Part shown: in pieces, positions 974 to 54,869 of the stretch
How the letters are laid out: every line of letters begins with the position of its first letter
How positions within the stretch are numbered: the stretch's first letter is position 1
NCBI GenBank assembly: GCA_963675295.2
Contig: CAXXKJ010000002.1
Location: 1,312,001-1,376,000 of the forward strand
Direction of reading: 5' to 3'
Length of the DNA: 64,000 nt
DNA from: a bacterium
GTDB taxonomy: Bacteria; Electryoneota; Electryoneia; Electryoneales; Electryoneaceae
Position numbers and translations under genes: made by a program
The notes under the pieces: model-generated
Told to the model about the DNA's origin: nothing
Seen by the model: the letters and a program-made list of their open reading frames with translations, nothing else
Database searches by the model: none

Positions 974-1004
974 CTCTTACACGCAATCACTCATAACTCA
1001 TCAC

Positions 1005-1916
1005 TCACGACTCATCACTCGTCAGTCCACGCCATCCCTCAGCCTGCTCACTCGTCAACCGTCCTTCGCGTTCCGCCAGTTCGACGAGTGCGGCGGTCAG
1101 TTGACGATACAGCGCTTTCGTTTCGTCATCCACCTCGGTCGCGAGGTGCGCGGTGACGGTGTCGCGGTCATTGCGTGCGACCGGGCCGGTCAACGCTCGC
1201 GCCGGGTCGTGTTGGTGCAGACTGTCCAGCATGCCACGCATCAGTGGCAACAGTGCCTGGATCGCGGTGGTCCGGTCCGCGGCGATCCCGTCCAGGCACC
1301 CCGCGCCCATGTCGAGCAGCAGCGGCAGGAAGTTGGACACGATCACCGACGCCAGATGATACTGCGCGCGTTGTTCATCCGGGACGATCATCGGTTGCAC
1401 ACCCAGCCGCCGCGCCAGTTCCATCATCGCGGGGAGCGCTCCGTCATCAGCGGTGACGCCGGCGTAGATGCCGTGGAAACGCTCTGCGCCGGATCGTGGC
1501 GGAAAGGTCTGGATCGGGTGGAAGGCGGCGGTCTGCCAGCCGAGTTGCGCGAGTGGCTTCAGTGGGGCCAGGCCATGCGCGCCGGACAGGTGCAGCGCGA
1601 TCCGTGGCACCTCGGCACCGTCGATTCGTGCGAGCGGATTCTCCGCGACACGGGCGGCGACAGATTCGATCGTTTGGTCCGGTGTCGCAATCAGCAGCAT
1701 CGGGTGGACCGGCGACAGGGCCGACAGGTCACAAATGGGGAAGCCGTCTGCTCGAGCGGTCGATGCGCCCGGCGAATCCAGCAGCTCGCAGACACAGCAG
1801 ATCGTGTGCCCGGCCTGCTGCAGGGCGAGGGTGAAGGCTCGTCCGGCGGAACCGTAGCCGACGACGGCGACGTCTGGCGGGTTTCCCGCGCTGATGTGTG
1901 GTGACGGTTGGCTCAT
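1005..1916 (-). CDS. Rossmann-like + DUF2520 oxidoreductase (possible PanG-type ketopantoate reductase)
   Basis: VVGYGSAG dinucleotide motif, ATPD, HLSGA, FHPIQTF, YHLASVIVSN, LTGPVARND. Confidence 0.85.
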   Translation of the reverse strand: MSQPSPHISAGNPPDVAVVGYGSAGRAFTLALQQAGHTICCVCELLDSPGASTARADGFPICDLSALSPVHPMLLIATPDQTIESVAARVAENPLARIDGAEVPRIALHLSGAHGLAPLKPLAQLGWQTAAFHPIQTFPPRSGAERFHGIYAGVTADDGALPAMMELARRLGVQPMIVPDEQRAQYHLASVIVSNFLPLLLDMGAGCLDGIAADRTTAIQALLPLMRGMLDSLHQHDPARALTGPVARNDRDTVTAHLATEVDDETKALYRQLTAALVELAEREGRLTSEQAEGWRGLTSDES

Positions 1917-4404: not shown

Positions 4405-4454
4405 GCAGGTGTGAGGATTGAGGTGTGAGGATTGAGGAGTTGAGGTAGGCTCAT

Positions 4455-6227: not shown

Positions 6228-6397
6228 ATAATCCGCAAGTATCCGAAACACGGTTGATCCCGACAGCTTGCTGGTCGGGATTATCCGCCGTCTCCACACT
6301 CCAAATCCCGAGCCCCGAGCTCCAGAGACAAAGCAGCCGCGTCTGTCACGCAGACACGGCTGTTGTGTTATTGCTGTTACCGACAACCGACAACCGA

Positions 6398-31583: not shown

Positions 31584-31779
31584 CTCATTATCCCTCGATT
31601 TCGTCTTCCACACTCAGCAAACCGTAACGTTATCAAGTACTTCTGCAATGTCACCTTGTGGCTGGCTGTGCGGTTCCCCACCGTCGCCCTGATCAGGTAC
31701 ACAACGGCAGCCAACGTCTTGAAAATTCAGGATCGTACATTGAGCCGGGCATTGCAAGTGCCCGGCCACGGAGTCACGT

Positions 31780-31814
31780 AAAAAACCGCCACGGATCAAG
31801 GTCCGTGGCGGTTG
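31780..31814 (-). terminator. Intrinsic terminator
   Basis: Minus strand ACCGCCACGGA-ccttga-TCCGTGGCGGTTTTTT. Confidence 0.8.
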
Positions 31815-31833
31815 AGCATCTGTATCAGGTTCA

Positions 31834-31994
31834 GGTTGTTCTTGTCTTTTCCTGTCTTTTGCTATCTGTTACTATCCGATCCTGTCTTTTCCTATCTGTT
31901 CCTATCTTTTCCTGTCTGTTACTTCTGTTGCATCTGTTACTTCTGTTGCATCTGTTGCTTCTTTTGCGTCTGTTGCTTCTTTTGCGTCCGTTGC
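31834..31994 (-). repeat. 3'-UTR tandem array: 9 nonamers then 7-8 decamers
   Basis: GYAAMRGAH x9 (31994-31914), then AGBAAMAGAY-like units (31913-31834). Confidence 0.95.
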
Positions 31995-33803
31995 TCACTT
32001 CAAGAGCGTCACTTTGCGCACCTGGTTGAACTGGCCGGGCACGGTCGCCTGCACGAAATACACTCCGCTGCTGAGGTCGCGGCCGTCCAGGGTCAAGGTG
32101 TGCTCGCCGGCGTTGGCGCGGCCGTTGAACAGCGTCGCGACCCGCTGGCCGTTCACGTTGTACACGTGCACCTGCAGCTCTGACCGTTGCGGCAGGTTCA
32201 GCTGCATGCTGGTCGTCGGGTTGAACGGGTTCGGATACGCTTCGCTCAGCGCGTAGCTGGCCGGCAGGCCGCCGCGACGGTCGCTGACAGACGCCGCAGA
32301 CGGATCAATCAATGTCCAGCCGAGATCATCCGGACCTGGCGCGATGCCGGTCTTGGTGAAGCTGAACATGTCCTCGGCGACAATCTGCTGATCCACGCTG
32401 AAGCGTGCCCAGTATTCGTAGGCACCGCCCGGCACATTGCCCGGCACATTCTGGGTTAATGTCGCGGTGGTGATGGTCTGGTTCGGCTGCAGGGTCAGGT
32501 TCGGGTAGTCGAGGATCGGGCCGTAGGTGTTGCCCAGCGGCGTGATCACCTCGGTCCACGCCGCCCCACTCAGCACCTGGTCGGTGTTGTTGGTCAGCAC
32601 GGCGCTGAACTGGAAGCTGCCGCCGCCCCACGGGATCACAATCGGATCGCCAACCGGCAGCAGTTCGACGGCTGCCAACGGCTCAACTGGAAGCGGAATT
32701 TCGACAGCGACGCAGTGCAGCTCGCCACCGAGCGGCGCGATCTGGTTGCAGTTGACGCCGACAACGTCCCAGTCTGGACCGAGCACTGACTCATAGACGG
32801 CAATTGCTTCGCTGTCAGTCGCGAGGCCGTAGATCGGGATGATCGCCTTGCCGTTGATCAGGATGCTGTTGGTGTAGGTCTTGTAATAGCCGCCGGAATA
32901 GTTTGGCATCGGGATGCGGACAATGTTGAACGTGCCGCCGTTGGCCGTCGGAACGTTGTCCATGTAGGCCGCGTGTGCTTCGACCAGGTCGTGGTTGACA
33001 TCGTTATCGTTGAAGTCGGCGACGATGATCGTGGAATCGTTGACCATCTTCGCCCAGATGTCGATGTGGCCGGTGCCGTCGTTGGCGATGCGTTGGAAAA
33101 TGTGCAGGTTGTCGATGCCGAAGTAGTCATGGTAGATCTGCTCTACGTCGTCAACATCGTAGCCGGGGTTGGCGTCGAGAACACGGGTCGACATCATCAT
33201 TGTGCCGTGCCCGTCGTTCATCATGTTGCCGCCCTCGTGGTACAGGTTCGGGCCGTAATAGCCATAGTCCCACTGATCGGCGAGCCATTCCGGGATGTAG
33301 TCGTCATGCGGACGGCTGTTGTAATACCGCAGATCGACAATCGACCACTCTCCCATGTCATCCACGAACCACGGGCCGAAATCCCGTACCCAGATGGCGT
33401 CTGTCGTGACGAACAGCCATTCGACATTGTCCAGCCCGACGCCGTAACTCGCCAGCGAGTTTGTGCACGAGTTCTGTTCGTTCGTGTTCGCGACGAGGAT
33501 GTAGACAATACCGGTATCCTGCGCATTGTCAACGATACCGGCGAAGATGTCGGGGAAGTAGAACGGCCAGCGGACAAGAATCCCTTCTTTCGGCTCGAAC
33601 TCGCCGTCCAGGTAGACCGGATTGTCCGGCGGCGGAGTCAGGGTGGCGATCTGCGGCGGACCCTGGTTCATCCGCTCCTGCTGTGTCATCCAGCGGGGGA
33701 GTGGTTCCTCACCACCGGGGAGGGTGTCTGCCTGCGCCAGTCCGGCGAAAGCGAATGCGGCAACCAGCAAGGCTGCGAGCAACATCAGTGGCAATCGGTT
33801 CAC
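31995..33803 (-). CDS. Secreted agmatine/peptidylarginine deiminase-family protein with Ig-like domain and T9SS-type CTD
   Basis: WVRDFGP, EGGNM, DGTGHID, YTNS, GGELHC catalytic motifs; YPNPFN...KVTLLK; GTG start after GAGGA. Confidence 0.9.
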   Translation of the reverse strand: MNRLPLMLLAALLVAAFAFAGLAQADTLPGGEEPLPRWMTQQERMNQGPPQIATLTPPPDNPVYLDGEFEPKEGILVRWPFYFPDIFAGIVDNAQDTGIVYILVANTNEQNSCTNSLASYGVGLDNVEWLFVTTDAIWVRDFGPWFVDDMGEWSIVDLRYYNSRPHDDYIPEWLADQWDYGYYGPNLYHEGGNMMNDGHGTMMMSTRVLDANPGYDVDDVEQIYHDYFGIDNLHIFQRIANDGTGHIDIWAKMVNDSTIIVADFNDNDVNHDLVEAHAAYMDNVPTANGGTFNIVRIPMPNYSGGYYKTYTNSILINGKAIIPIYGLATDSEAIAVYESVLGPDWDVVGVNCNQIAPLGGELHCVAVEIPLPVEPLAAVELLPVGDPIVIPWGGGSFQFSAVLTNNTDQVLSGAAWTEVITPLGNTYGPILDYPNLTLQPNQTITTATLTQNVPGNVPGGAYEYWARFSVDQQIVAEDMFSFTKTGIAPGPDDLGWTLIDPSAASVSDRRGGLPASYALSEAYPNPFNPTTSMQLNLPQRSELQVHVYNVNGQRVATLFNGRANAGEHTLTLDGRDLSSGVYFVQATVPGQFNQVRKVTLLK

Positions 33804-36808: not shown

Positions 36809-36878
36809 GGCGTATTTCACATCTCGACTCTCAGCTCTGTCGTCCCGAGGGACGAGAGACTAGAGACGAGGGACTGTC

Positions 36879-39242
36879 TTACTTCATCAACGTGACCTTC
36901 TGGATCTCGTTGAGCTGGCCCGGAACCTGCGCCTGGATGAAGTACAGGCCGCTGGAGAGGTGCTCAGCGTTGAAGACGAAGTTGTGCGAACCGGCGTTAA
37001 CCTGGCCATTAACCAGCGTCGCAACCTGCTGACCCGTGATGTTGTAAACCGTCACGGTCAGTTCGGCCGTTTCCGGCAGGTTGACGGCGAGTGTGGTGGT
37101 CGGGTTGAACGGGTTCGGGTACGCGGTTTCGACGCTGTACACGGTCGGCAGCTCGACGACGGTTTCGTCTTCGCTGGCGATCAGCGCATCGATACCGACG
37201 AAGTCTTCCGGGTTCAGGATGCCGTCAACAGCGCCCGTCTTGTAGAAATCGAAGCTGTCCGGGAACTGATACGGGCCGGCGCCAACCTGGCCGGTGAAGG
37301 TGTAGGTACCCGCCGGAGCGGCAGCCGGGACGCTGACGGACAGACCGGTGAAGGTCGCGTTCATGAACGGAGTCAGCGTGAACGGAATGTTGTCGATCGG
37401 GTACGTGTTGTTGTTCGGCGCGAGCACGCTCGAGGTGTAGCGGACCGGGTAGGTGCCACCGATGTTGCTGACGAGGTGCGCGTTGTAATAGATGTTGCCG
37501 CCGGTGGCCGGGACGGTGTCGGTGGTGACGTTCAGGTCGAGGTTGACCGGGCCGGTCTGGACCATCTCGATGTCACCGATTTCGCTCGGCTGCAGCTGGC
37601 ATTCGCTGTTGTAGGTGTCGATCGTGCCGCGCACGGTGATCTGGTCACCGATCGCGTACTGGCTCATGTCGAAGCCGGCCGCGGAGTAGATGCGGATCGT
37701 GGCGTCGCCGGAACCATCGTTGATCGAGAAGTTGAAGTCGCCCGGAAGGTTCGGCTCGGTGGTGATCTCACCGGTCAGCTCGGTCCATGTGCCTTCGAAC
37801 GAAAGGCCGCCGGTGTTGAAGTCGCCGGTGTCGAAGGTCAGTGGGGTCGGCAGCGGGTTGCCGGTGCTGAGCTCGGTCCAGCTGAAGTCGATCAGCTCGG
37901 TGGTATCGAAATACTGGTCGATCTTACCAATCACTTCGACCTGGTCGCCACGGTCGAGGCCTTCACCGTTCAGCGTGTCGGACGAGTACATCATGATGCC
38001 GTATTCGGAATCATCCTGCACGAACACGTCAACATAGTAGTCGTGAATAGTGTCGTGACCCTGGGTGACGATCGCGTTGACGCGCACGTAGTGGTAGGTC
38101 AGGGTGTCGCCGCCGAGGGAAGTGTCCGGATCGATGAACGCATACGGGTCCATCTGGATGTCAGCAACGGCCACGTCCAGAGTGTCCCAGACGGTGACGA
38201 AGTCCGGAGCCCATTCATTCATCGCGCCCGGAGTACCGAAGTCGCCATCGCCGAACTGCAGGTCGGCTTCGAGCCAGTTCGCGCCGTCATCGTTGTCGAG
38301 GGTCCAGTCGGTGAGCTGCATCGACGCACCGGTCGGATCCGGCCACACCGTGCCGCCGTCGTAAGAAACGCCATCCACGACGTTCATGCCGGTGTCGTAG
38401 AGGTAAACTTCGTCCGCGGAGTTGGACAGGAAGAAACCACTGTACTGATAGTCAACCGGGACACCACCGTTGAGGTTCATGTCAGCGTTGATGCCGAGGA
38501 CCGCGTAACCGCCGGCCGGGACAATCACGGTGCCGGTGATGACGTGGCTGTCGCTGTCGAGGTCGGCGAGGGTGTAGCCGTCAATGTCGACATCGAAGTT
38601 ACCCGGGTTGTAAAGCTCGACGTACTCACCGTCGTTGTCGCCAACCGCGGCCGGGTTCTGCATGATCTCGTTGATGACGAGTGCCGGCGGATCCGACCAC
38701 TCATTCAACGCGCCCGGGGTACCGAAGTCGCCATCGCCGTACGGCAGGTTCGCTTCGGCCCAGTTGGTGCCGTCGTTGTTGTCGAGGTTCGGGTCGAGGA
38801 GCTGCATCGACGCACCGTTCGGATCCGGCCAGACCGGGCCGCCATCGTACTCAACGCGGTCCATCTCGTTCATGCCGGTGTCCCACAGCACGATCTCATC
38901 GGCACCATTGCCGATGTAAAACGTGCTCGGGTATTCATAGTCAACGTTCACGCCACCGTTGGTCGCGAAGTCAGCATTGACACCGAAGACGAAGTAGCCA
39001 CCGGCCGGGACAACTGCAGTGCCGGAGACCACGAAGGTTTCGGCCGCGTTGGTCAGATCTTCGACCGTCCAGCCGTCCATGTCGACGTCAGTCGCGCCGC
39101 TGTTGTACACCTCAAACCACTCACCATTCGAGTCAGAAACCATCGACGGGTTCTGCATGATCTCGTTGATGATGATGTCGGCCTGTGCGGCCCCGGCGAC
39201 GAGCAGCGCCAGCATCAGAACAAACAATTTCGCACGCAGCAT
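36879..39242 (-). CDS. Secreted protein: two lamin-tail domains + OB-fold-like unit + Ig-like domain + T9SS-type CTD
   Basis: Two INEIMQNP...EW/YxExYN...GTPG repeats; OB unit and C-terminus shared with the neighbouring gene. Confidence 0.85.
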   Translation of the reverse strand: MLRAKLFVLMLALLVAGAAQADIIINEIMQNPSMVSDSNGEWFEVYNSGATDVDMDGWTVEDLTNAAETFVVSGTAVVPAGGYFVFGVNADFATNGGVNVDYEYPSTFYIGNGADEIVLWDTGMNEMDRVEYDGGPVWPDPNGASMQLLDPNLDNNDGTNWAEANLPYGDGDFGTPGALNEWSDPPALVINEIMQNPAAVGDNDGEYVELYNPGNFDVDIDGYTLADLDSDSHVITGTVIVPAGGYAVLGINADMNLNGGVPVDYQYSGFFLSNSADEVYLYDTGMNVVDGVSYDGGTVWPDPTGASMQLTDWTLDNDDGANWLEADLQFGDGDFGTPGAMNEWAPDFVTVWDTLDVAVADIQMDPYAFIDPDTSLGGDTLTYHYVRVNAIVTQGHDTIHDYYVDVFVQDDSEYGIMMYSSDTLNGEGLDRGDQVEVIGKIDQYFDTTELIDFSWTELSTGNPLPTPLTFDTGDFNTGGLSFEGTWTELTGEITTEPNLPGDFNFSINDGSGDATIRIYSAAGFDMSQYAIGDQITVRGTIDTYNSECQLQPSEIGDIEMVQTGPVNLDLNVTTDTVPATGGNIYYNAHLVSNIGGTYPVRYTSSVLAPNNNTYPIDNIPFTLTPFMNATFTGLSVSVPAAAPAGTYTFTGQVGAGPYQFPDSFDFYKTGAVDGILNPEDFVGIDALIASEDETVVELPTVYSVETAYPNPFNPTTTLAVNLPETAELTVTVYNITGQQVATLVNGQVNAGSHNFVFNAEHLSSGLYFIQAQVPGQLNEIQKVTLMK

Positions 39243-39697
39243 GCTGCGATCCTCCTTTTGTGTATACGGATCTCTGGGTCAAGCTTGTCGTTAGAAAGAA
39301 TTCACGAGATCCTCCCCATCGGATCTCATCTCGGGCGGAAAGGTACTCGAGAGTATTAGGGTTTCGTTCAGTCCAGTTCAAGTCTGCGCCCTCCAGAGGC
39401 AGAGAGGTTAAGTCAATGATATATATAGAGTTATCATCTGCTAATTGTTAAATTGAGATATCATGTTAGCGACTGAGAAGGGGCGCAAACCCATAAAAAA
39501 CGGGGGTCTTGCACTCAATCAGCGCAGGGCGTCGTTATAAGTATGCCTCTCGAGCCAAAACTCAGATTGGATTTGCTGCACAGGTTCTTGTGTTCTCTGA
39601 AGTAGGAACGGGTCAGAAGTAGCCGCAATGCAAGGCTGGGGGGACGTGCAGCGGGAGATGGGCAGAAGATGGAAATCCGGATTTGCCCGGAACAAGA

Positions 39698-39732
39698 AAC
39701 GGGGACATTTCGCGTCCGGAAATGTCCCCGTT
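39698..39732 (-). terminator. CGGGGACA palindrome acting as likely terminator
   Basis: AACGGGGACATTT...AAATGTCCCCGTT followed by TCTT on the minus strand. Confidence 0.7.
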
Positions 39733-39739
39733 GAGAGCT

Positions 39740-39858
39740 GCTTTTGCTGTTTTCTAAGGTCTTTGCCTGTCTTTTACTATCCGTTACTATCTGTTCCTGT
39801 CTTTTACTTCCTTTTCCTGCAGTTCCGAGAGACGAAAGACGAAAGACCAGAGACGGTC
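39740..39858 (-). repeat. 3'-UTR tandem array: heptamers then decamers
   Basis: GTCTCTG GTCTTTC GTCTTTC GTCTCTC, then AGGAAAAGGA AGTAAAAGAC AGGAACAGAT AGTAACGGAT AGTAAAAGAC AGGCAAAGAC. Confidence 0.9.
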
Positions 39859-45284: not shown

Positions 45285-45436
45285 CAATAGATGCCAAAGA
45301 CGCAACTGACGCAAAAGACGTAACAGACGCAACTGACGCAACTGACGCAACTGACGTAACACACGCAACACACGTAACACACGTAACACACGTAACACAC
45401 GTAAAACACGCAACACACGTAAAACACGCAACTGAC
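45284..45436 (+). repeat. 3'-UTR array of 17 nonamers
   Basis: GCAACTGAC / GTAACACAC / GCAAAAGAC variants starting at the last base of the stop codon. Confidence 0.95.
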
Positions 45437-45446
45437 GCATAAGTGA

Positions 45447-45480
45447 ACCGGGGACACTTTCTCCCGAAAGTGTCCCCGGT
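45447..45480. terminator. CGGGGACA palindrome between convergent genes
   Basis: ACCGGGGACACTTTC-tccc-GAAAGTGTCCCCGGT. Confidence 0.75.
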
Positions 45481-45515
45481 GGTTTATTGCTAAAGTTTAA
45501 AACTGGTCAAGTGAA

Positions 45516-45578
45516 GTCTGTTATATCTTTTGCATCCGTTGCATCCGTTGCATCCGTTGCATCCGTTGCGTCTGTTGC
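45516..45578 (-). repeat. 3'-UTR array of 7 nonamers
   Basis: GCAACAGAC, GCAACGGAT x4, GCAAAAGAT, ATAACAGAC on the minus strand. Confidence 0.95.
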
Positions 45579-49018: not shown

Positions 49019-49048
49019 TAAAAAAGCCACGGACTGAAGCCCGTGGCT
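49019..49048 (-). terminator. Intrinsic terminator / REP-like hairpin
   Basis: Minus strand AGCCACGGGCTTCAGTCCGTGGCTTTTTT. Confidence 0.75.
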
Positions 49049-49074: not shown

Positions 49075-49189
49075 TATCTTTTCTTGCTGTTTCTATCTTT
49101 TCTTGCTGTTTCTATCTTTTACTTTCTTTTCCTATCTCTTCCTGTCTTTCACTTTCTGTTGCTTCTGTTGCTTCAGTTGCGTCTGTTGC
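49075..49189 (-). repeat. 3'-UTR tandem array: 4 nonamers then decamer-like units
   Basis: GCAACAGAC GCAACTGAA GCAACAGAA GCAACAGAA, then AGTGAAAGAC AGGAAGAGAT AGGAAAAGAA AGTAAAAGAT... Confidence 0.92.
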
Positions 49190-54785: not shown

Positions 54786-54869
54786 CAGTCTTGAGTCCTG
54801 AGACCTGAGTCTTGAGACAAATCGCGATGCCCGCGGGAGCTTCAGTTCGCTACCGCGGCTTATCCGAAC

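Follow-up and report, generated by a model that had tools for sequence, protein, structure and literature searches.

The closest described relatives of the repeats reported here are the intergenic heptamers of Xanthomonas (GGGAATC) and Nostoc (GGGGA(C/T)T), for which no function was explained (Rehm et al. 2015, PMC4692102). [quoted passage not shown] The heptanucleotide STRR repeats of cyanobacteria and the long simple sequence repeats of prokaryotes, as they are cited in the parts of PMC4692102 and PMC4679880 used here, have short tandem units of 5–11 nucleotides (nt), are intergenic and lineage-biased, and polymerase slippage has been proposed as their origin. TAACTGA direct repeats were described from marine Beggiatoaceae, cyanobacteria, and Bacteroidetes, mostly just 5′ of start codons; in the same parts of that source, binding by S1, Csp, and Csr proteins is suggested but not proven (MacGregor 2015, PMC4679880). 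The DNA analyzed here is a stretch of 64,000 nt (hereafter, the window) from an Electryoneaceae bacterium (GCA_963675295.2, contig CAXXKJ010000002.1, positions 1,312,001 to 1,376,000), in which five genes are followed by A-rich tandem arrays of 9- and 10-nt units. There is good support for placing these arrays, as an A-rich 9/10-nt branch restricted to one genus, among the polar gene-end tandem repeats that are known as heptamers from Xanthomonas, Nostoc, and further bacteria. To our knowledge, that class has been noted since the 1990s and never explained, and the genome studied here is one of its densest cases.

All five arrays were recovered from the window with Tandem Repeats Finder, each starting 0–11 nt past a stop codon, and the A-rich strand was always the coding strand of the adjoining gene. 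As four of the genes point left (minus strand) and one right (plus strand), and all five arrays are A-rich on the coding strand, the strand of the array tracks the gene and not the window. The initial annotation, made from the letters of the window alone, had reported these five genes with an array on the messenger RNA (mRNA) strand, and this was confirmed. It had also called the genes unrelated, which did not hold: two of the five carry the type IX secretion C-terminal sorting domain (Pfam). One of them is the 31995..33830 gene, the product of which was assigned PAD_porph and a type IX secretion tail (Pfam). Its array consists, on the mRNA strand, of approximately 11 nonamers at the stop side and then approximately 7 decamers.

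The genome was available as a 4.81-Mb assembly in two contigs (58% G+C, 92.8% complete). Genes (3308) were called by an iterated codon-usage score; the stops are unambiguous once the frame is right, and some small genes were missed. Genome-wide, 165 nonamers and 101 decamers have the common 7-nt core AA[A/C]NGA[C/T/A]. The core is completed by a 2-nt linker (GC) in the nonamer and by a 3-nt linker (AG[G/T]) in the decamer. A shared core had been proposed earlier and stands in this 7-nt form, and the description of the decamer as the nonamer plus one A came close, the only discrepancy being a difference in the last base. The units contain 52% A and 25% G; because they are A-rich and without G-runs, they cannot form quadruplexes.

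Arrays were detected as at least three cores chained at steps of 9 or 10, which gave 65 arrays in the genome and 18 in the reversed genome. After merging, 57 arrays were left, 54 of them intergenic. Within 50 nt past a co-directional stop lay the starts of 42 of these 54 arrays, compared with 0 of 54 when the strand was flipped. Three of the 12 exceptions follow genes missed by the caller, two continue longer arrays, and seven are unexplained. A strict three-unit nonamer pattern matched the genome 35 times and its reversed version 0 times; for the decamer pattern, the counts were 90 and 1. A chance origin of the 9/10-mer arrays is excluded. The order of nonamers before decamers, which the initial annotation had stressed, was seen at 31845..31995 and 49075..49189, but it is no rule of the genome: nonamers came first in 13 of the 54 arrays, decamers came first in 7, and 34 contained one kind only. 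The heptamers said to precede decamers at a third locus were found at 39764..39855.

Four public sequencing runs were found (one study, two samples), none of them listed as RNA, and their contigs matched the arrays without any difference. Three of the runs represent one sample, probably the source sample, and the run of the second sample spans 39774–39855 and 49075–49189. Since the contigs of these runs carry the arrays identically, they are not an artefact of one assembly. One run contig breaks within the long nonamer array near 45352, as expected at a repeat.

The A-rich 9/10-mers are one branch of a larger polar-repeat phenomenon. The genome contains 842 intergenic short-period arrays, including 456 of period 7, 108 of period 9, 71 of period 10, 29 of period 8, and 16 of period 6, and perfect arrays reach 31 copies. 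Genes flank 841 of these arrays on either side; in 338 of the 841, the distance to a stop is no more than 30 nt, and approximately one in ten of the called genes ends in a strand-polar array. Array density per kb of spacer was 1.76 at convergent, 1.14 at tandem, and 0.56 at divergent junctions, and 481 arrays lie in tandem junctions. The heptamers resemble the 9/10-mers in position, with a median distance of 13 nt to the nearest flanking stop (238 within 30 nt), and their mRNA strand is G- and T-rich, unlike that of the A-rich 9/10-mers.

A single composition rule spans all periods, namely more G than C and few pyrimidine-C dinucleotides on the mRNA. Among the 338 stop-adjacent arrays, the mRNA strand had G>C in 283 and the opposite in 47, and a purine excess in 251 versus 74; pyrimidine-C dinucleotides were fewer on the mRNA strand than on the other strand in 250 arrays versus 73. 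The first 40 nt past array-free stops, used as a control, showed no skew (1367 versus 1361). The rule goes with the gene and not with the chromosome strand, because it holds for + genes (119 versus 22) and − genes (151 versus 23) alike. Chromosome strand was used instead of leading and lagging strand, as the cumulative GC skew of the assembly gave no clear origin. Since the A-rich 9- and 10-mers follow the rule, it is independent of G-quadruplexes and of period 7. A shared strand-polarised grammar of the 3′ untranslated region (UTR), as originally put forward, was thus borne out by the counts for stop-following placement and for G over C, and the genome-wide scan of strand bias and stop distance found the arrays neither strand-random nor unenriched past stops.

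Selection for unstructured RNA was considered as the common rule and rejected, since the mRNA strand of the heptamers was the more structured one in 130 of 158 arrays. Heptamer folding energies were −0.21 kcal/mol per nt on the mRNA strand versus −0.05 on the disfavoured strand; the 9/10-mers are unstructured on either strand (−0.03 kcal/mol per nt).

A terminator-like site was detected within 300 nt for 211 of 337 array genes versus 1178 of 2689 array-free genes, so that the hairpin is common, not universal. The earlier statement that an array always precedes a hairpin is correct for four window sites, where the hairpins are strong, and too general for the genome. In the window, the hairpin at 45447–45480 lacks a T-run on the strand of the 45586 gene. 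The median distance from stop to hairpin was 86 nt with an array and 49 nt without; subtracting the array length gave 44.5 nt, and the arrays look like additions to the normal spacer. Being located between the stop codon and the intrinsic terminator, they should be transcribed as 3′ UTR. Two stereotyped terminator hairpins were found genome-wide: a palindrome of approximately 28 nt, GGGGACA...TGTCCCC, in 145 copies (126 intergenic), and a CCACGG...CCGTGG hairpin in 104 copies. They occur within 200 nt beyond 78 and 43 of the 338 stop-adjacent arrays, respectively, with window copies at 39698–39732 and 45447–45480. These hairpins are a REP-like family of bidirectional terminators. The coordinates of the features are collected in Table 1.

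Table 1. Arrays, hairpins, and 23S_rRNA_IVP genes; positions refer to the window unless a contig is named
Feature	Position	Strand	Remarks
A-rich 3′-UTR array of the 31995..33830 gene	31845..31995	−	Tandem Repeats Finder, periods 10 and 9
Intrinsic-terminator-like hairpin, 12 pairs, with T-run	31784..31813	−	Approximately 30 nt beyond the 31845..31995 array
Mixed array 3′ of the 39860..41491 gene (4Fe-4S protein, Pfam)	39764..39855	−	Approximately 4 heptamers, then A-rich decamers; Tandem Repeats Finder row 39774–39855, periods 10 and 7
Terminator-like hairpin, 14 pairs	39698..39732	−	Stereotyped GGGGACA...TGTCCCC family
Nonamer array, approximately 15 units, 3′ of the 43263..45284 gene (type IX secretion tail, Pfam)	45296..45443	+	Tandem Repeats Finder, period 9
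Palindromic hairpin, 15 pairs, common to two convergent genes	45447..45480		T-run on + strand only
Nonamer array, 5.4 units, 3′ of the 45586..49008 gene (tricorn-type protease, Pfam)	45530..45578	−	Tandem Repeats Finder, period 9
Nonamers then decamers 3′ of the 49197..51689 gene (OPT transporter, Pfam)	49075..49189	−	Tandem Repeats Finder, periods 10 and 9
Terminator-like hairpin, 10 pairs, with T-run	49025..49048	−	
Heptamer array across the stop of the 1005..1916 gene	986..1024	−	G/T-rich on mRNA strand
Weak A-rich decamer pair	827–854	−	Beyond the 986..1024 heptamer array
Heptamer array immediately 3′ of the stop of the 6398..7330 gene	6379..6397	−	
Heptamer array, 2 nt past the stop of the 3247..4404 gene	4407..4445	+	
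Heptamer array, 1 nt past the stop of the 53097..54785 gene	54787..54818	+	
Six 23S_rRNA_IVP genes	Contig C2: 849241, 2117705, 2504819, 2923441, 3547293, 3750340		Co-oriented with neighbours

The nonamer pattern, with 35 matches here, had 27 in the sister species and none in the 39 other relatives searched. Of the genus's four species, three had the decamer pattern (90, 88, and 11 matches); one further genome had a single match, and the other 75 phylum genomes searched had none. By these genome comparisons, the A-rich 9/10-mer arrays are confined to one genus. Matches to a pattern built on the skeleton of the heptamers (given below) were plentiful in three species of the genus and one genome of another family, and most other genomes had none; the control of this search was not clean, in that the reversed pattern also matches real arrays. 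Heptamer density was 0–5 per 100 kb in seven relatives (samples of 20–80 kb) versus 11.7 here.

The arrays were also compared site by site with the sister species. Thirteen of 15 A-rich arrays of the sister species could be placed in this genome, and 11 of these 13 sites hold an A-rich array. At the 11 shared sites, unit number and sequence differ between flanks that are 81–94% identical. Arrays are therefore long-lived at a site and fluid inside; this is microsatellite behaviour and is also compatible with selection for presence. At the gene end matching 49075..49189, the sister species has an array of different units. The 45530..45578 array is missing after the 93%-identical tricorn gene of the sister species, the neighbourhood of which differs there, and in a 69%-identical relative, fourteen perfect heptamers run from the stop codon of the tricorn-type protease gene, replacing the nonamers.

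The explanation tentatively favoured here is that the arrays are slippage-driven 3′-UTR repeats tolerated in one orientation only. They would grow and shrink by whole units from a small vocabulary of seed units, through replication slippage as we infer, and would be add-ons to the normal spacer that need no dedicated regulator. Only the orientation that gives a purine-rich transcript with G>C and few pyrimidine-C dinucleotides would persist; the opposite orientation would place a long, unstructured, C-rich untranslated RNA behind the ribosome. Rho factor loads on RNA of this kind, and as the putative filter it would end transcripts before the protective hairpin or silence downstream genes of the operon. 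The Rho gene is present in the genome. The mRNA strand of the heptamers contains 37% G and 17% C, so that their disfavoured strand is C-rich; the composition of a rut site is absent from the mRNA strand of the arrays, which has 16–17% C and G>C, and the opposite strand is rut-like. Such a one-orientation filter would account for the polarity of heptamers and 9/10-mers alike.

Several observations weigh against this explanation, since slippage with a filter leaves the narrow vocabulary, the anchoring at stops, and C-rich arrays before start codons unaccounted for. The 238 stop-adjacent heptamer arrays use only 76 circular units versus approximately 195 after letters were shuffled within units, and the biggest unit families comprise 13 arrays versus at most 6 after shuffling. 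Rotational alignment of the heptamers gave a skeleton of 4.34 bits versus 2.71 ± 0.21 in shuffled units, with T, and G three positions on, in more than 90% of units. A single 9/10-mer core is used over and over, at upwards of 50 loci and by three species. For the 262 arrays located between a stop and the first hairpin, the stop is the closer of the two in 200 and the hairpin in 55 (medians 7 and 39 nt). Arrays just 5′ of start codons lean C-rich on the coding strand (52 versus 30), which contradicts the prediction of the Rho filter if those arrays are transcribed. A repair defect behind the burst of arrays was rejected, because MutS (16 of 16 family genomes) and exonuclease VII (15 of 16) are present as in array-poor relatives. 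The units of 3′-UTR arrays also build arms around four-helix-bundle genes. Because of the narrow vocabulary, the stop anchoring, the pre-start arrays, and this last link, two further explanations, a track for a binding protein and relics of cassettes, are kept alive and are weighed below.

The anchoring at stops may arise partly because stop-rich arrays themselves set the end of the frame. It holds in stop-free arrays as well, 67 of 182 of which lie within 7 nt of a stop. Seeding of the units from the stop region of the same gene was tried and rejected: for heptamers, in-phase identity with the last 4 nt plus the stop was 0.283 with the own and 0.283 with swapped gene ends, and for 9- and 10-mers z was only 1.7–2.1, the swapped ends themselves being alike. 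A gene's own TGA stop was mildly tied to TGA in the unit (52 of 103 versus 46 of 135).

Stop codons within the units bear on a further reading, in which the arrays are three-frame stop traps: stop-bearing units with a period that is not a multiple of three would catch readthrough or frameshifted ribosomes. TGA is found on the mRNA strand of 98 of the 238 heptamer arrays and on the other strand of 29, and TAG, of equal composition, in only 12. The density of stop triplets was 0.077 versus 0.044 in composition-matched shuffles. With TGA abundant on the mRNA strand, heptamer arrays close all frames fast, within a median of 70.5 nt versus the test's limit of 150 nt for array-free genes, and within 60 nt in 46% versus 10%. 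Yet 115 of the 238 heptamer units contain no stop at all, three units would suffice where arrays reach 31 copies, and the adjacency of stop-free arrays to stop codons is not what a trap predicts. Moreover, nonamers hold any stop in a single frame, and in-frame closure past 9/10-mer arrays was no faster than in controls (72 versus 69 nt). The trap explains only half of the heptamers, and as a reading of the arrays it is very unlikely.

In 23S ribosomal RNA (rRNA), intervening sequences (IVSs) that carry an open reading frame have a four-helix-bundle gene in the loop of a long stem. A search with PF05635 (23S_rRNA_IVP, related to Avd proteins) gave matches in 62 of 79 phylum genomes, with six copies in this genome (Table 1). 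All six genes sit between two inverted arrays of one unit family, the family differs per gene, and the first arm begins directly past the stop of the upstream gene. The gene at contig C2:3750340–3750654 is enclosed by A-rich decamers, and in the sister species decamer arms of 44 nt, 86% complementary, surround a PF05635 gene (E = 5.5e-36). At six IVP loci from six other phylum genomes, tandem arrays were present on both sides in 6/6, with clearly reverse-complementary units in 3/6. The arrays that enclose IVP genes show that the vocabulary of the 3′-UTR arrays is also that of the cassette stems. Gene profiling had been suggested earlier for reverse transcriptase, which does not track the arrays, and for the four-helix-bundle gene, which is physically linked to them.

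One reading of this linkage, possible though on the unlikely side, is that an oligomeric protein uses the arrays as multivalent landing tracks, in the form of RNA or single-stranded DNA. The 23S_rRNA_IVP/Avd-like four-helix-bundle family would be its best candidate, autoregulated and with the solo 3′-UTR arrays as its targets; the decamers around its gene in two species name one concrete candidate binding protein. Both the enclosure of every IVP gene here, with the same layout in the sister species, and the array-flanked loci of the other phylum genomes point in this direction. Recognition is a better match than neutral drift for the restricted vocabulary, the cross-species unit family, and the stop anchoring. 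Across the genus's four species, genomes with more IVP copies (7, 6, 5, and 2) also have more arrays, which is weak evidence from four related genomes. On the other side, 76 heptamer unit families and the 9/10-mers are faced by only 6 IVP paralogues, dense solo arrays occur in very few of the many phylum genomes with IVP, no nonamer-flanked IVP gene was found, and the arms could be mere cassette stems. A more specific and distinctly unlikely version makes the A-rich and the heptamer tracks periodic mRNA 3′-end landing pads for putative ring-forming IVP/Avd-like proteins, the genes of which would sit inside their own target repeats, in a post-transcriptional regulon that would extend in this genus to type IX cargo mRNAs. 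If true, such a regulon would supply a function both for the bacterial heptamer repeats, so far unexplained, and for a protein family that has lacked one for decades.

The same architecture, found here and across the phylum, is also what would be expected if the arrays were arms, or leftover solo arms, of mobile IVS-type cassettes inserting at gene junctions, with a vocabulary shared by spread and not by reading. The same units recur at unrelated loci, and strings of several units are shared between loci in excess (61 pairs of at least 20 nt versus 15–24 in shuffles of unit order). Recent copy-and-paste between loci was nevertheless rejected, as the excess of shared strings is modest and homogeneous arrays make up the top pairs. 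Within 700 nt, only 13 of 320 stop-adjacent arrays have an inverted partner, and none of the five window arrays does except the convergent pair 45296–45578; the other 307 of the 320 have none. Leftovers should survive in both orientations, yet the solo arrays are polar, and arrays of one unit family share neither flanks nor defined ends. No link to a transposase or integrase turned up, none having been specifically sought. An origin from cassettes is thus improbable.

The binders and the process named in the initial annotation, CsrA- or Hfq-type binding sites and templated addition of repeats by a reverse transcriptase, are largely refuted and highly improbable. Some units contain GGA or A-R-N-like triplets, and the genome has one RVT_1 match. 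However, no match to CsrA (PF02599) was obtained in the 92.8%-complete genome with a search that was positive in 3 control genomes, and none to Hfq (PF17209) with a search positive in 5 control genomes. In addition, the arrays are essentially unstructured, which disagrees with the CsrA reading, and the decamers break the triplet register of an Hfq-like (A-R-N) one. Reverse transcriptase is present in 8 of 16 family genomes with a distribution unrelated to the arrays: in the array-rich sister species there is no more than a fragment interrupted by internal stops, and 10 copies are found in an array-free relative. HutP and TRAP, ring proteins that read periodic triplets, were also tried as candidates and rejected, as no gene was found with searches that were positive in control genomes. 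Rfam 15 gave 0 matches at the gathering score in the window, and only a chance-level match (E = 0.79) in 31600–32100.

A-rich arrays do not follow genes at random. With a profile seeded from four Pfam-verified tails, 402 of the 3308 called genes (12%) were identified as ending in a type IX secretion tail, an unusually large cargo set. Tail-bearing genes precede 23 of 41 A-rich arrays, versus 344 tail-bearing genes among the 3030 without an adjacent array (odds ratio 10, p = 8e-12), and heptamer arrays show no tail enrichment (35 of 237). Among the 23 array-bearing cargo genes, 8 have an array at their nearest paralogous tail too (1.2 expected, p = 0.0005); for the other 15, the nearest paralogue has none, including one pair with 93% identical tails. 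The enrichment comes partly from descent, by duplication of paralogues carrying the array along, and the cargo link shows how paralogue families can bring 3′-UTR repeats along. The 18 tail-less array genes vary in kind, and gyrase-B-like and other cytoplasmic proteins are among their products. The arrays were also considered as an mRNA zip code for envelope proteins; this was rejected, since only 6 of the 18 have a signal peptide or membrane segment by a crude hydrophobicity measure, versus a background of 46%.

Other observations were made on the arrays and their surroundings. Both weaker sites that had been suspected in the window, at approximately 827–854 and 6360–6397, exist; the second one is a heptamer array. 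The heptamer array at 36846–36874, 3′ of the 36879..39242 gene, is C/T-rich on the mRNA strand and is thereby one of the 47 exceptions to the G>C rule among 330 arrays. At 36879–39359, open frames of 787 and 799 codons lie on opposite strands and overlap nearly completely. Codon scoring and Pfam (lamin-tail domain, secretion tail) favour the minus-strand frame, and the opposite one is probably a shadow frame. At contig C2: 235393–235435, an A-rich array has no upstream open frame; the preceding 470 nt are 91% identical in the sister species, where an array is present too, and a non-coding RNA or small gene may end there. A recurring element of approximately 40 nt (GTGTCATTCTGAACG...GAAGAATCT type) lies 3′ of several arrays, at approximately 935–975 on the minus strand of the window and elsewhere in 3′ regions of both this genome and that of the sister species. 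A 20-nt repeat, GGAACGAAGAGGAATGAAGA, occurs at at least 4 loci and has the look of a small dispersed repeat. Another conserved element, approximately 25 nt long and distinct from these, consists of 2.7 ACGGAAT-containing nonamers (e.g., contig C2 286677–286700, 1253222–1253246, and 4111459–4111483). It is near-invariant 3′ of many stops, sometimes forms inverted pairs approximately 170–200 nt apart, and stands outside the A-rich family.

In comparison with known systems, the arrays resemble the IVS/IVP cassettes of 23S rRNA in that the IVP genes here lie in the loops of stems built of 3′-UTR array units. They differ from them in that approximately 95% of the arrays are solo, in a single orientation, and followed by an ordinary terminator, and none is in rRNA. 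The REP/BIME elements of enterobacteria are abundant extragenic palindromic units in transcribed 3′ regions, enriched between convergent genes. The arrays here share this abundance and placement; unlike REPs, they are direct tandem repeats, and the REP-like feature of this genome is the stereotyped hairpin family.

With the STRR and long simple sequence repeats, as these are cited in the parts of the two sources used here, the arrays share short tandem intergenic units and lineage enrichment. They are like the TAACTGA repeats, as far as the used parts of PMC4679880 describe them, in being lineage-patchy spacer arrays oriented relative to genes, the TAACTGA indels between strains occurring in 7-nt steps; they are unlike them in following stops. 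The likeness is greatest to the heptamers of Xanthomonas and Nostoc, again within the parts of PMC4692102 used here: the arrays are intergenic, tandem, mostly 0–50 nt past the stop, of fixed strand, sparse between divergent genes, spread over the functional classes of genes, and retained between the same genes in relatives while length and sequence change. As such polar tandem repeats past stops have been published, the arrays are not the undescribed system for which they were first taken. The differences from those heptamers, within the same parts of the source, are units of 9/10 nt that are A-rich and form no quadruplexes, many unit families, the enrichment of A-rich arrays at cargo genes, and the larger scale, as 338 arrays lie no more than 30 nt from a stop in a genome with 3308 called genes. 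Because their unit is not a 7-nt, G-rich, quadruplex-capable one, the arrays are a variant and do not belong to that sequence family.

A literature search, for which most subscription journals were out of reach, gave nothing on 9-/10-nt A-rich repeats behind secretion genes and nothing linking a four-helix-bundle gene with such repeats. Even if neutral, the arrays call for caution in annotation, assembly, and terminator prediction in uncultured lineages. Set against the described repeats, what is new here is an A-rich unit of 9/10 nt, its confinement to a single genus, its tenfold enrichment at cargo genes, the composition rule that covers all periods, and the decamer arms around a four-helix-bundle gene.

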